Virus record (IMG/VR): IMGVR_UViG_2695420540_000010
Length of the DNA stretch: 11,545 nt
Source: a virus
Taxonomy: Duplodnaviria > Heunggongvirae > Uroviricota > Caudoviricetes
Strand: one strand, 5' to 3'
The notes under the pieces were generated by a model. That model was not told the origin of the DNA, did not search any database, and worked only from the letters and a program-made list of their open reading frames with translations. A program made the translations under genes and the position numbers. Below, piece after piece: positions 2,958 through 10,795 of this stretch (positions within the stretch are counted from its first letter, which is position 1; every line of letters begins with the position of its first letter).

Positions 2958-4016
2958 TCATCCGTTCTGGCTGACTAAATCCTGTACTTCCCGAACCGTC
3001 TGCTCAAAACGTTCAGTCTCCAGCTCAACGCCAATTGCACGACGCCCGAGCGCCAGTGCCGCTTTCACTGTCGAACCCAACCCCATGAAAAAATCTGCAA
3101 TCAGGTCACCCGGACGACTGCTAGCGCTGATTATCTGCTGCAGCATTTCTGCCGGTTTTTCGCACGGATGTTTCCCGGGATAGAACTGCACCGGTTTATG
3201 CGTCCACACATCGGTATACGGCACCTGCACCGTCACGCCAAAATACCGCCGCAGATGTTTATATTCACTCAGCAGCTCCGCATACTGCCGGTTCAGTGAG
3301 GTATACGTATCCACCAGCTGGTGGTGGAGCTTTTCCAGTTCACCACGCCGATGCTTCTCTTCTGCCACCCGGGCAAACAGCGCCTGTAATTTCAGATAAT
3401 CGCTTTCATTCGGCAACTGCCACTGACCGGCACTGAACCAGTGCGACACCATGTTTTTCTTTCCTGTGGCATCTGCAATCTGTTTTGCCGTTATCCCCAG
3501 GGCAGCTCGCGCATCACGAAAGTAAGAAATCAGCGGGGCCATCACATGCTGTTTCAGTGCACTGCCCTTCGCCGCATACCCGGCATCTTTCGGACGATAC
3601 GGCCCCTGATAATGTTCCGCGAACAGAATGCGCTCTGTGGCGGGGAAATACGCCCGCAGGCTTTCCTTGTTGCATCCGTTCCAGCGTCCGGACGGCTTCG
3701 CCCAGATAATATGGTTCAGCACACTGAAGCGTTCACGCATCATGATTTCGATATCAGATGCCAGGCGATGACCACAGAACAGGTAAAGACTTCCGGCAGG
3801 TTTCAGCACCCGCCAGAACTGCGCCAGACACTGGTCCAGCCACTTCAGGTAATCATCGTCGCCCTTCCACTGGTTATCCCAGCCCTCAGGCTTCACTTTA
3901 AAGTACGGCGGGTCCGTGACTATCAGGTCAACAGAATTTTCGGGTAACGACCGGATAAATTCCAGGCAGTCGGCGTTGATTAACTCACAACTGGATATTT
4001 TTACAGTATTAAGCAT
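2958..4016 (-). CDS. DNA methyltransferase, beta-class amino-methyltransferase (N6-adenine or N4-cytosine), apparently orphan
   Basis: 352 aa. Motif IV DPPY near the N-terminus (IVTDPPYF) and the SAM-binding FxGxG motif I near the C-terminus (DFFMGLGST), the circular-permuted order of beta-class enzymes. No restriction endonuclease candidate nearby. Confidence 0.8.
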   Translation of the reverse strand: MLNTVKISSCELINADCLEFIRSLPENSVDLIVTDPPYFKVKPEGWDNQWKGDDDYLKWLDQCLAQFWRVLKPAGSLYLFCGHRLASDIEIMMRERFSVLNHIIWAKPSGRWNGCNKESLRAYFPATERILFAEHYQGPYRPKDAGYAAKGSALKQHVMAPLISYFRDARAALGITAKQIADATGKKNMVSHWFSAGQWQLPNESDYLKLQALFARVAEEKHRRGELEKLHHQLVDTYTSLNRQYAELLSEYKHLRRYFGVTVQVPYTDVWTHKPVQFYPGKHPCEKPAEMLQQIISASSRPGDLIADFFMGLGSTVKAALALGRRAIGVELETERFEQTVREVQDLVSQNG

Positions 4017-4163
4017 GGATCATTAAGCCTGTCTCTGATAGGCTCATTCTGCTTTTGCGCAAAGCAGTGGGCCTGAGGTTTGCTTGTGAACCCAACGCAT
4101 GAGCAGATGGCTGGTGGGTGNNNNNNNNNNNNNNNNNNCCCCCACCAGCCGCCCATTTACCAC

Positions 4164-4191
4164 AAATAAAAAAGCCTTCACTGCGGAAGGC
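4164..4191 (-). terminator. Candidate intrinsic terminator on the minus strand, overlapping the stop of the 65-aa ORF
   Basis: Hairpin gccttc-actgcg-gaaggc followed on the minus strand by ttttttatttg. Confidence 0.45.
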
Positions 4192-4375
4192 GTCTGTAAC
4201 AACCGAACTGATAGTCTGCCAGACCCGCCATAACCAGCTGGGTCAGTATTAACTGGCAGCGTTCGCGTGAAAGGTAAGTATTCTGCGCTATCTCCCCGAC
4301 TGTCGCCGGTTCGGTAACGCTTAATTCATTAAACACCACTCTGGCGGTTTCTGTCATATCCTGCTGTTTTAGCAT
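4178..4375 (-). CDS. Small (65 aa) putative helix-turn-helix DNA-binding protein
   Basis: ATG start with GGAAAA about 5 nt upstream. Segment TVGEIAQNTYLSRERCQLILTQL looks like a helix-turn-helix. Sits between the Q candidate and the methyltransferase. Confidence 0.5.
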   Translation of the reverse strand: MLKQQDMTETARVVFNELSVTEPATVGEIAQNTYLSRERCQLILTQLVMAGLADYQFGCYRRLPQ

Positions 4376-4495
4376 GTCTTTTCCTTTTCCGGTTAACGTG
4401 ACACACCAATAACTCTTGTCGAAAAAGCCAGCAAGCTGAAAGACAGGTATTCACCGCCACCAGCGCGTTTACTGTACTGACGCGATTTCAGTCAT

Positions 4496-4517
4496 AAAAA
4501 ACCCGCTCGGCGGCGGG
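4496..4517 (-). terminator. Intrinsic terminator about 40 bp downstream of the Q-like gene; candidate tR'-type site
   Basis: Minus strand reads cccgc-cgccga-gcggg followed by TTTTTT. Confidence 0.5.
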
Positions 4518-4558
4518 TTGTAGAAACTCTTCTAACGTCAGGCATAAAACGCCCATCG

Positions 4559-5314
4559 TTATGACGAATTTACCACAGATTCCGGAAAAATCAACCTAGT
4601 TACCTTTTTTAACTGCCGCTCAGCCCATGCTTCTTCAATATCAAACCGGGTCACCAGCGCATCATAAAATTTCTTAACTGTTTTTTCCCATGACGCGCGT
4701 GTTATCTGGTTTGTCACCTCGCATATAGCATTAAATGCCTCCGTTGATGGTAGTCTTTCATAGCCACGACCACCACAACGCTGGCAGTCTCTGATAACAG
4801 GCATACCACGTTTTACCGACTCTTCACGATGAATGGCGACACCACGCCCACGGCAATCCTTACAGGCGGTGGAAACCTCACCCTTTCCGCCACACTCCGG
4901 ACAGGCAACTTTTACCACCTCCCTGACTTTTTTCCATTCTTCCCAGTAAGACGGATACACACCTTTCGTACACTTTGCCCATACCGGCGGCTTACCATCC
5001 GGATACTGGATCTTGTTTGTAAAAACCTCGCTTTCAATAAATTTTTTTCCGTGACAGCAGGGGCACTGTTTTTTGCTCGCCGCGCTACGGGCATAATCTT
5101 CAAACGCATACGAAGCCATAATACGCATCACTGCCGGTTTTATTTCTGCCGGGAGTTTTCTTAACGCCGCCACGCGATCACACCGACTGAGTGCATATTC
5201 TGTCAGCAATTCTGTTGCCCGCTCTCTGTCATTCATACTAATGCCCATTTTCCCAAGGAACGCAGAAACCCCCATCTCAGCCCGATTCTGTGTCATGCCC
5301 TGCGCGGCCATCAC
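4559..5314 (-). CDS. Putative late-gene antiterminator Q-family protein (QuuQ/YdfT-like) with DnaJ-type CxxCxGxG zinc-finger repeats
   Basis: 251 aa (GTG at 5314, ATG at 5311). Lies downstream of rusA and upstream of a terminator and the tRNA cluster, the Q position in lambdoid phages. Contains CPCCHGKK, CPECGGKG, CKDCRGRG and CQRCGGRG. Family assignment is from context and memory. Confidence 0.5.
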   Translation of the reverse strand: MMAAQGMTQNRAEMGVSAFLGKMGISMNDRERATELLTEYALSRCDRVAALRKLPAEIKPAVMRIMASYAFEDYARSAASKKQCPCCHGKKFIESEVFTNKIQYPDGKPPVWAKCTKGVYPSYWEEWKKVREVVKVACPECGGKGEVSTACKDCRGRGVAIHREESVKRGMPVIRDCQRCGGRGYERLPSTEAFNAICEVTNQITRASWEKTVKKFYDALVTRFDIEEAWAERQLKKVTRLIFPESVVNSS

Positions 5315-5754
5315 ATCAGTGATACTCAGCGCATCTTTCGACGTTGAGGCCGATGCATCAGTCAGGCCGGGGGATTTTGGGGAGTAGTATTTCGGTAAAT
5401 CTTCNNNNNNNNNNNNNNNNNNNNNNNNNNNNNNNNNNNNNNNNNNNNNNNNNNNNNNNNNNNNNNNNNNNNNNNNNNNNNNNNNNNNNNNNNNNNNNNN
5501 NNNNNNNNNNNNNNNNNNNNNNNATGCGCATCACTACCGGTTTTATTTCTGCCGGAAGTTTTCTCAACGCCGCCACACGATCGCACCGACTGAGTGNNNN
5601 NNNNNNNNNNNNNNNNNNNNNNNNNNNNNNNNNNNNNNNNNNNNNNNNNNNNNNNNNNNNNNNNNNNNNNNNNNNNNNNNNNNNNNNNNNNNNNNNNNNN
5701 NNNNNNNNNNNNNNNNNNNNNNNNNNNNNNNNNNNNNNNNNNNNNNNNNNNNNN

Positions 5755-6097
5755 GGTAAATCTTCACCCCCAGACGTCCACCAGATACTGGCTGACCACG
5801 AACGATATTGATTTCATCAAACTGCTCATCGTCCATTAACACTCCCGCATGTGTCAGTGCATCCAGTGGTGCTTTCAGGATATTGTCCAGGTCACGACGG
5901 CGCTTATCCGGTGGCTCTGCAATAATCTTTATCGCCAGTCTTCCGGACAGGCTTAATTTCAGTCGCTGCTGACGGACAATAAGCGCCACATCCCGGCGAT
6001 AACGCTCACCGGCTTTTGATACAAAATATGTGTTGTCACGACGTCGCCAGTAAGTATTCACCGTCGGCGGATAAGGTAAAATAAACTCATGGCGCAT
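5755..6097 (-). CDS. rusA: Holliday-junction resolvase RusA (3' end lost in an N-run)
   Basis: N-terminus MRHEFILPYPPTVNTYWRRR and the motif PPDKRRRDLDN match the RusA family (E. coli RusA has PDRRRRDLDN). Start overlaps the upstream stop as TGATG. Confidence 0.75.
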
Positions 6098-6688: not shown

Positions 6689-8245
<1,557 letters not shown>

Positions 8246-8260
8246 NNNNNNNNNNNNNNN

Positions 8261-8462
8261 GCTTATCCGGTGGTTCTGCAATAATTTTTATTGCCAACCT
8301 TCCGGACAGGCTTAATTTCAGCCGCTGCTGGCGAACAATAAGCGCCACTGCCCGGCGATAACGCTCCCCGGCTTTTGATACAAAATATGTGCTGCCACGA
8401 CGACGCCAGTAAGTGTTCACCGTCGGCGGGTAAGGTAAAACAAATTCTATGCGCTCGGTCAT
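8261..8462 (-). pseudogene. rusA: Second rusA copy, N-terminal 67 codons only, cut off by the N-run next to the IS21 element
   Basis: MTERIEFVLPYPPTVNTYWRRRGSTYFVSKAGERYRR...IIAEPPDK. Roughly 90% nucleotide identity to 5886-6097 by eye. Its ATG directly follows the upstream stop (TAAATG). Confidence 0.6.
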
Positions 8463-10348: not shown

Positions 10349-10504
10349 TTACTCCTCAGGTTCGTAAGCTGTGAAGACAGCGACCTCCGTCTGGCCGGTT
10401 CGAATTCGTACCTCGCAGAGGTCTTTCCTCGTTACCAGTGCCGTCACTATGACGGTTAAACAGATGACGATCAGGGCGATTAACATCGCCTTTTGCTGCT
10501 TCAT
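10349..10504 (-). CDS. hokD: Hok/Gef-family type I toxin (HokD/RelF-like, 51 aa); the in-frame 70-aa extension to 10561 is a Mok-like frame
   Basis: MKQQKAMLIALIVICLTVIVTALVTRKDLCEVRIRTGQTEVAVFTAYEPEE matches the Hok family, and HokD as I recall it. AAGGAG lies 9 nt upstream. An upstream in-frame ATG at 10561 has its own GAGG. Confidence 0.85.
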   Translation of the reverse strand: MKQQKAMLIALIVICLTVIVTALVTRKDLCEVRIRTGQTEVAVFTAYEPEE

Positions 10505-10795
10505 AGCCTGCTTCTCCTTGCCTTTCGGCACGTAAGAGGCTAACCTAGATTTGCCGTTCATAGATTGAGCCTCAGATTAATGTTAAGCGTCTTGCCGGAC
10601 GCGTAATGTTAACTGGGGCTTTTCTCTATCTGCCTTTTGGTGTTCATGCCTGAGACAGATAGCCTCAAGCACCCGCTGCAATTCTACTTAACTCTCCTTT
10701 TCCCGCAAACCGTTTTTATCCCCAGCGGCAAATCGAATACACCACCAGCGCCACCGCCATCGCAATTCCTACCGTTGTTAATGCTTCAGGCCAGG

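Follow-up and report, generated by a model that had tools for sequence, protein, structure and literature searches.

A Q gene on the minus strand of the window

The window analyzed here, an 11,545-nucleotide (nt) stretch of viral DNA (IMG/VR record IMGVR_UViG_2695420540_000010), contains on its minus strand an open reading frame (ORF) of 251 amino acids at 4559..5314, present as first described in an earlier note, which had placed it in the slot of the antiterminator gene Q. This ORF is the 3′ 756 nt of the Q gene; the complete gene occupies 4559..5413 on the minus strand and encodes about 284 amino acids. Upstream of 5314, the Q frame is open to 5404, up to a run of N that starts at 5405, and reads EDLPKYYSPKSP...ITDV, paralleling the N-terminus of lambda Q. 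Toward the N-run the frame can also be written ...EDLPKYYSPKSPGLTDASASTSKDALSITDV-MAAQGM, again like the lambda N-terminus. The common Escherichia coli homolog, a 273-residue protein that is 97% identical and has thousands of member sequences, starts with MKLEDLPKYY. Because the frame is open to the N-run and these homologs begin in this way, the true start probably lies near 5413, with the first ~9 nt (5405-5413), or three codons, under the mask. Within the nozzle-forming N-terminal segment of lambda Q (residues 1-44), the frame resembles residues 8-44, its first three codons being N-masked. E. coli TK3889 carries the same allele, a deletion form described below, annotated at 284 amino acids.

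The earlier note had allowed that profile searches might point to a family other than Q. Instead, the protein matches Pfam Antiterm (PF03589), the lambda Q family, with 162.5 bits against a cut-off of 26.7, and PHROG 127, "anti-termination protein Q-like", with an E-value of 4e-95. Lambda Q structures in the PDB are matched at E ~1e-29 in two collinear stretches, with ORF residues 1-89 matching lambda Q 34-123 and residues 149-240 matching lambda Q 116-207. The zinc-binding cysteines of the lambda arm (C118, C121, C144 and C147) are conserved, aligning with ORF C151, C154, C177 and C180. These matches and the position of Q in related phage genomes bear out the placement of the gene in the Q slot. 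The note had also proposed a comparison with the Q proteins of phages 82, 21 and lambda. Lambda Q was matched, but neither Q82 (PF06323) nor Q21 (PF06530) was among the Pfam hits at E up to 1, and membership in these two families was rejected on that ground.

An AlphaFold model built on a 109-sequence alignment, with a mean predicted local distance difference test (pLDDT) score of 79, finds lambda Q in the PDB by Foldseek (7ubn_Q, E 4.8e-13) and has the lambda Q fold, a helical body with a helix-turn-helix plus a zinc-ribbon arm. In lambda Q, the helical body bears the helix-turn-helix, and the arm (residues 114-152) is a single zinc ribbon that touches positions 11-13 of the Q-binding element (QBE) and sigma region 4 (PMC9388147). 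Family membership and fold are established. We conclude, with a probability that we put near 0.88, that the protein is a lambda-family Q late-gene antiterminator of a common long-arm subtype, encoded together with its late promoter, pause site and terminator in a lambdoid prophage that has decayed.

Genes of this kind are already known and annotated in thousands of genomes, including E. coli K-12. DNA of the Q region is found in 3146 of 5426 complete E. coli genomes, where it is annotated "antitermination protein". A relative occurs in 249 phage records, and in 131 of these one collinear match spans the long form. Lambda, P22 and HK620 carry the short form. The Q protein of Escherichia phage mEp460 is 96% identical, with RusA upstream and the same promoter block, and gp73 of Salmonella phage ES18, also a long form, is encoded with the nin genes on one side and the lysis genes on the other. 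In the Qin prophage of E. coli K-12, ydfT, the gene of a putative antitermination protein Q, encodes a long form that is 40% identical and has the same downstream layout. By sequence, about half of the lambda-Q-family proteins in sequenced phages are thus long-arm forms, which have a second zinc site by prediction and go with a candidate binding element that is strongly conserved. A literature search found nothing on the biochemistry of quuQ/ydfT and neither a solved structure nor biochemistry of long forms, and we know of no long-form Q for which either has been published.

Four cysteine motifs and the enlarged arm

The long form is distinguished by a segment that lambda Q lacks and by the cysteine motifs in and after it:

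4865..5065, minus strand: extra segment relative to lambda Q (ORF residues 84-150), in which motif 1 is followed by a long beta-hairpin whose tip varies, then by motif 2 and a short linker; delimited by the split lambda match and the alignment gap
5042..5065, minus strand: Cys motif 1, CPCCHGKK at ORF residue 84, of the form CxxCxGxK; Cys pair kept in relatives
4880..4903, minus strand: Cys motif 2, CPECGGKG at residue 138; C, C and G invariant in 109 homologs
4841..4864, minus strand: Cys motif 3, CKDCRGRG at residue 151; aligns with lambda Q C118/C121
4763..4786, minus strand: Cys motif 4, CQRCGGRG at residue 177; aligns with lambda Q C144/C147

The motifs at residues 84, 138, 151 and 177 agree with the earlier claim of four cysteine motifs, three of them exact CxxCxGxG. 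The exact ones are motifs 2, 3 and 4, motif 1 being CxxCxGxK, and we counted the protein as having the four repeats of DnaJ. When the protein was shuffled 200,000 times, one exact motif arose in 0.19% of shuffles and three in none. Conservation of the motifs is established: all four Cys pairs are kept in ~78 diverged homologous loci from many genera of Enterobacterales, among them Escherichia, Klebsiella, Enterobacter, Kluyvera, Pantoea, Serratia, Xenorhabdus and Yersinia.

In the AlphaFold model, the strands of the beta-hairpin lie at 122-133 and 156-167 (281-residue numbering), flanked by motifs 1 and 2, and the length of the tip ranges from ~22 to 50 residues among relatives. Motifs 3 and 4, with the segment between them, align with the lambda arm, and the model gives the same strand-helix-strand pattern. 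The extra segment is predicted to fold as a second zinc ribbon, placed where the Q arm begins. Most likely, judging from the model and the alignment, the four motifs bind two zinc ions as two tandem ribbons, 1+2 and 3+4, with motifs 1 and 2 clamping the added beta-hairpin and so enlarging the arm, and motifs 3 and 4 forming the equivalent of the lambda arm.

The earlier note had likened the motifs to the cysteine-rich (CR) domain of DnaJ. The likeness exists, as a sub-threshold match to Pfam DnaJ_CXXCXGXG (PF00684; 30.7 bits, where the cut-off is 32.7, over no more than positions 1-52 of the 65 in the profile), but it is weak and is shared by lambda Q itself, which scores 23.1 bits on the same profile; K-12 YdfT passes with 35.4 bits. 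For the DnaJ equivalog TIGR02349 the score is 29 bits, where 377 are required, and neither a J domain nor DnaJ C-terminal domains were among the Pfam and TIGR matches to the ORF protein. PMC5313236 mentions in passing that InterPro assigns a DnaJ-CR domain to a lambda-Q-like protein from Acinetobacter phage Loki, and that remark was all that a literature search for a DnaJ-like second zinc module in Q proteins returned. At the level of sequence, then, the resemblance to DnaJ is genuine for the zinc-knuckle module but weak, a trait of the Q family that is common to lambda Q, and does not point to a chaperone role.

A predicted late promoter with its pause element and terminator

Elements of a late promoter region are recognizable at the 3′ end of the Q gene and in the DNA just past it:

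4589..4594, minus strand: predicted -35 of the late promoter pR', TTGATT, at the position equivalent to lambda TTGACT
4573..4588, minus strand: promoter spacer TTTCCGGAATCTGTGG, 16 nt, candidate Q-binding element, with TG at -15/-14 (extended -10)
4567..4572, minus strand: predicted -10, TAAATT, identical to that of lambda pR'
4552..4560, minus strand: sigma-dependent pause element, AACGAT plus GGG (AACGATGGG), identical to lambda pR' +1 to +9
4494..4519, minus strand: intrinsic terminator tR', with a 7-bp GC-rich stem and 6-nt loop (4519-4500) followed by T6 (4499-4494)
4562..4594, minus strand: 11-codon C-terminal extension of the ORF, LIFPESVVNSS, which reads through the late promoter; deletion junction near 4595-4598, by alignment with E. 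coli TOE17 and lambda

The promoter block runs from 4594 to 4552 as TTGATT, 16 nt, TAAATT, the 6 nt CGTCAT and then AACGATGGG, and aligns with lambda pR'. In lambda, the QBE lies between -35 and -10 (PMC9388147), and AACGAT at +1 to +6 followed by a discriminator-like GGG directs a sigma70-dependent pause at +16/+17 (PMC4005639). The window thus has the cognate late promoter expected of the lambda Q family, with a candidate binding element in the spacer, a pause element at +1 to +6 that resembles a -10, and a terminator downstream; the sequence identity of promoter and pause element to lambda, and the terminator itself, are established. By comparison with lambda, transcription is predicted to start at ~4560. 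The -35, spacer and -10 all fall within the final 36 nt of the ORF, whose stop codon, TAA at 4561-4559, overlaps the predicted +1.

The hairpin begins 40 nt past the Q stop, in keeping with the hairpin and T6 that the earlier note had seen about 40 bp downstream. With a start at 4560, it would extend from +42 to +61, with the T-run at +62 to +67. This hairpin (4519-4500) is the predicted late terminator, giving a terminated leader RNA of ~65 nt. This leader folds with -21.9 kcal/mol (z -2.4) and matches no Rfam family at gathering thresholds. As a separate observation, the first ~27 nt of the predicted leader (4534-4560, minus strand) form a small hairpin closed by AACG...CGUU, and AACGA...UCGUU complementarity is likewise present in the lambda pR' leader (887-910 of our lambda locus, L002) and at many related loci.

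The same order of elements recurs widely. A strict pattern of -10/N5-8/AAYGATGG within 140 nt of the Q stop fits 39 of 77 diverged loci, and 37 of those 39 have a terminator hairpin whose end lies a median of 54 nt past the first nucleotide of the pause element. Because pause elements vary (AACAGT, AACACT), the strict expression failed to find about half of the related loci; judged by eye, the remaining diverged loci show such variants. K-12 Qin and mEp460 have the same order of promoter, pause element and terminator. In 40 loci, whose Q proteins are ~45-97% identical to that of the window, the block CTATTTACTTTTCC[CG]GAA[AT]CTGTG[GT]TAATTT is 80-99% conserved, as is the spacer core TTTTCC[CG]GAA[AT]CTGTG, and conservation falls to 30-50% in the flanking DNA. 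By its sequence, this spacer block looks as an embedded Q-binding element would, and we regard it as a candidate.

At most of the long-arm Q loci outside Escherichia (among L007-L049), an AT-rich inverted repeat, AAATAGCTCAC-N7-GTGAGCTATTT, abuts the -35 (TTTACT), as at L007, where it lies within ~50 nt after the Q stop. Neither the window nor the E. coli alleles have this repeat, which might serve to end the upstream transcript or to bind a protein.

The earlier note had also suggested that the late promoter may overlap the 3′ end of the gene. This is true of the window, yet the window carries a rare deletion allele, and in relatives the -35 begins at least 5 nt past the Q stop. In typical E. 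coli alleles the sequence is ...AAGGTAACTAGGTAACAAGGTTGATT; a TAA ends the frame right after ...KKVTR, and the -35 starts 5 nt on. The window is without 8 bp, one copy of a GGTAAC[T/A]A repeat. Because of this deletion, the stop after ...KKVTR is lost and translation continues for 11 codons, through -35, spacer and -10, to end at TAA 4561-4559. Only 4 of ~2440 matching E. coli genomes have this ungapped allele. Other loci have their pause element beginning 39-77 nt past the Q stop; the corresponding figure for the window is -2. Judged from the aligned alleles, the overlap of ORF and promoter reflects a rare deletion, not a designed overlap.

A mechanism for the locus can be taken by homology from lambda (PMC9388147, PMC4005639). 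RNA polymerase would start at pR', with the predicted +1 near 4560; sigma70 would re-bind the -10-like AACGAT-GGG at +1 to +9, and polymerase would pause near +16/+17. Q would use its helix-turn-helix body and zinc arm to bind the element that lies between -35 and -10. The modified polymerase would ignore the hairpin terminator at +42 to +67 and read into the 65-residue ORF, the methylase gene and the tRNAs, whereas in the absence of Q only the ~65-nt leader RNA would be made. Rather more tentatively, the second ribbon and hairpin may be a working extension of the arm that makes contacts lambda Q lacks (to promoter DNA around -35, or to sigma region 4, the beta-flap or NusA). Paired with the distinct and widely conserved element TTTTCC[CG]GAA[AT]CTGTG, it might form a structurally different Q-loading complex, a possibility to which we give about one chance in three.

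Alternative readings, surroundings and known systems

Several points weigh against the identification of the window protein as a working Q with its own late promoter. A generic sigma70 scan of 3900-5450 called no promoter: the pR' site has 8 of 12 consensus positions and the scan threshold was 9, so the late promoter was found only through alignment with lambda pR'. The activity of this allele is predicted wholly from homology, and the zinc pairing from secondary structure and homology. The start codon is hidden by N. The prophage is decayed, with an insertion of the IS21 family of insertion sequences (IS), a duplicated RusA and a partial second copy of Q. Finally, by comparison with lambda, the 11-residue extension could impair function, since C-terminal residues L202 and T206 of lambda Q contact the nozzle and are needed for antitermination (PMC9388147), so the tail might reduce activity.

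The result of the scan, and the fact that the hairpin is the first terminator past the Q stop, could be read to mean that the hairpin and T6 at 4519-4494 end the early, or Q, transcript and that the real late promoter lies further downstream. This is very improbable, as a lambda-like -10 and a lambda-identical pause element stand directly upstream of the hairpin, promoter, pause and terminator follow in this order at 37 of the 39 strict loci, in K-12 Qin and in mEp460, and no comparable promoter-like block lies past the hairpin. We give still less credence, close to none, to the idea that the Q slot is taken by a chaperone of the DnaJ zinc-finger type, or by some other zinc-finger protein, that is no antiterminator. 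The sub-threshold Pfam and TIGR matches, the label "chaperone protein DnaJ" that the homolog P0025 bears in its source, and the match of an arm-only model to DnaJ CR domains speak for it; a DnaJ chaperone identity was rejected, the profiles being under their cut-offs and the J and C-terminal domains not among the matches. A more serious alternative accepts the protein as a Q family member but holds that this allele is a non-functional remnant, so that the locus would make only the short leader RNA. The rarity of the deletion allele, the residues added to a C-terminus that in lambda packs against the nozzle, the degraded surroundings and the occurrence of frameshifted relatives, such as P0007 from Shigella sonnei, all favor it. 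However, apart from the deletion the ORF is intact, its product shares 97% identity with the common 273-residue protein, the core promoter, pause element and terminator are untouched, and the extension is predicted to be disordered (pLDDT <50 for its last residues) and may be tolerated. We consider a remnant unlikely, though the least unlikely of these alternatives, and prefer the reading as a Q antiterminator whose tail may have some effect on its activity.

As such, the locus is a standard prophage late-gene regulator and matters little for discovery. Exact coordinates for promoter, pause site and terminator are useful, as is the share of long-arm forms among phage Q proteins. Q/pR' modules of this kind also control prophage late genes, with toxin genes among them in some relatives of E. 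coli. A point of some interest is the role of the second zinc ribbon and hairpin in Q loading, and it would be reasonable to compare the structure of the long-arm subtype with that of lambda Q.

DUF968 and RusA lie upstream of Q on the minus strand, and the 65-residue ORF, a DNA methylase gene and transfer RNA (tRNA) genes lie downstream; holin and lysis genes follow downstream in related loci, outside this window. The 65-residue ORF (4178-4375, minus strand), between tR' and the methylase gene, is conserved, is annotated "hypothetical" in E. coli, has no Pfam match and is followed by its own terminator-like hairpin at 4191-4174. The second Q copy (5524-5596, minus strand) is 92% identical to codons ~75-98, the first copy of which is at 5121-5193. 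It sits between the N-runs 5405-5523 and 5598-5754, between RusA and the full Q gene, and the 403-nt spacing of the copies is unlike a simple tandem copy of full Q behind RusA; a 337-residue Q'-Q fusion protein (P0001) occurs elsewhere. The two RusA copies, at 5755-6097 and 8124-8462, are 89% identical over 194 nt, and the upstream copy is cut by the IS21-family element at 6689-8127 (IstB and the C-terminal part of IstA). The two RusA copies and the IS suggest two fused or rearranged prophage segments.

Further along the minus strand, three matches to the Rfam small RNA STnc100 lie at 780-969, 1915-2124 and 2402-2591. Transfer RNAs are found at 1666-1742, 2668-2744, 2758-2834 and 2842-2917, with a duplicated tRNA-Arg(tct) downstream of the methylase, and direct repeats of 219, 101 and 88 nt in the STnc100/tRNA region indicate local duplications. 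At 10349-10674 (minus strand), a hok-type toxin ORF is accompanied by a match to the Rfam sok antitoxin RNA (112 bits).

Among known systems, lambda Q (PF03589; PDB 4MO1, 7UBJ-7UBN) has a homologous four-helix body with a helix-turn-helix, a homologous zinc-ribbon arm and a probably homologous N-terminal nozzle segment, is ~40% identical over the aligned parts, and is encoded at the same genome position. The window protein differs by an insertion of ~65 residues where the arm begins, which contains a beta-hairpin and two further Cys motifs. At the promoter, the -10 TAAATT and AACGAT plus GGG are identical to lambda pR', whereas the spacer (QBE) has a different sequence and is 16 rather than 17 nt long, the leader is ~65 nt rather than the 194 nt of lambda 6S RNA, and the Q ORF overlaps the promoter. 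YdfT/QuuQ of K-12 Qin, ES18 gp73 and mEp460 Q have the same architecture of four Cys motifs and a promoter, pause element and short-leader terminator of the same type, but end at ...VTR with the -35 at least 5 nt past the stop, whereas the window allele lacks 8 bp and runs 11 codons into the promoter.

The DnaJ CR domain (PF00684; PDB 1EXK) and anti-TRAP are further comparisons. The Q ORF has neither a J domain nor a DnaJ C-terminal domain, and its spacing differs, with 46 residues separating motifs 1 and 2. Its predicted zinc pairing is tandem (1+2, 3+4), whereas that of DnaJ is interleaved (1+4, 2+3), and its predicted function is binding of DNA and RNA polymerase rather than chaperoning. 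Finally, the short constitutive pR' RNAs of lysogens, lambda 6S RNA and StxS of Shiga-toxin phages (PMC7547250), arise from the same kind of promoter-proximal terminator, which predicts a short leader at this locus when Q is absent; compared with those RNAs, a regulatory role of the 65-nt leader, which lacks the Rfam match noted above, is hypothetical.
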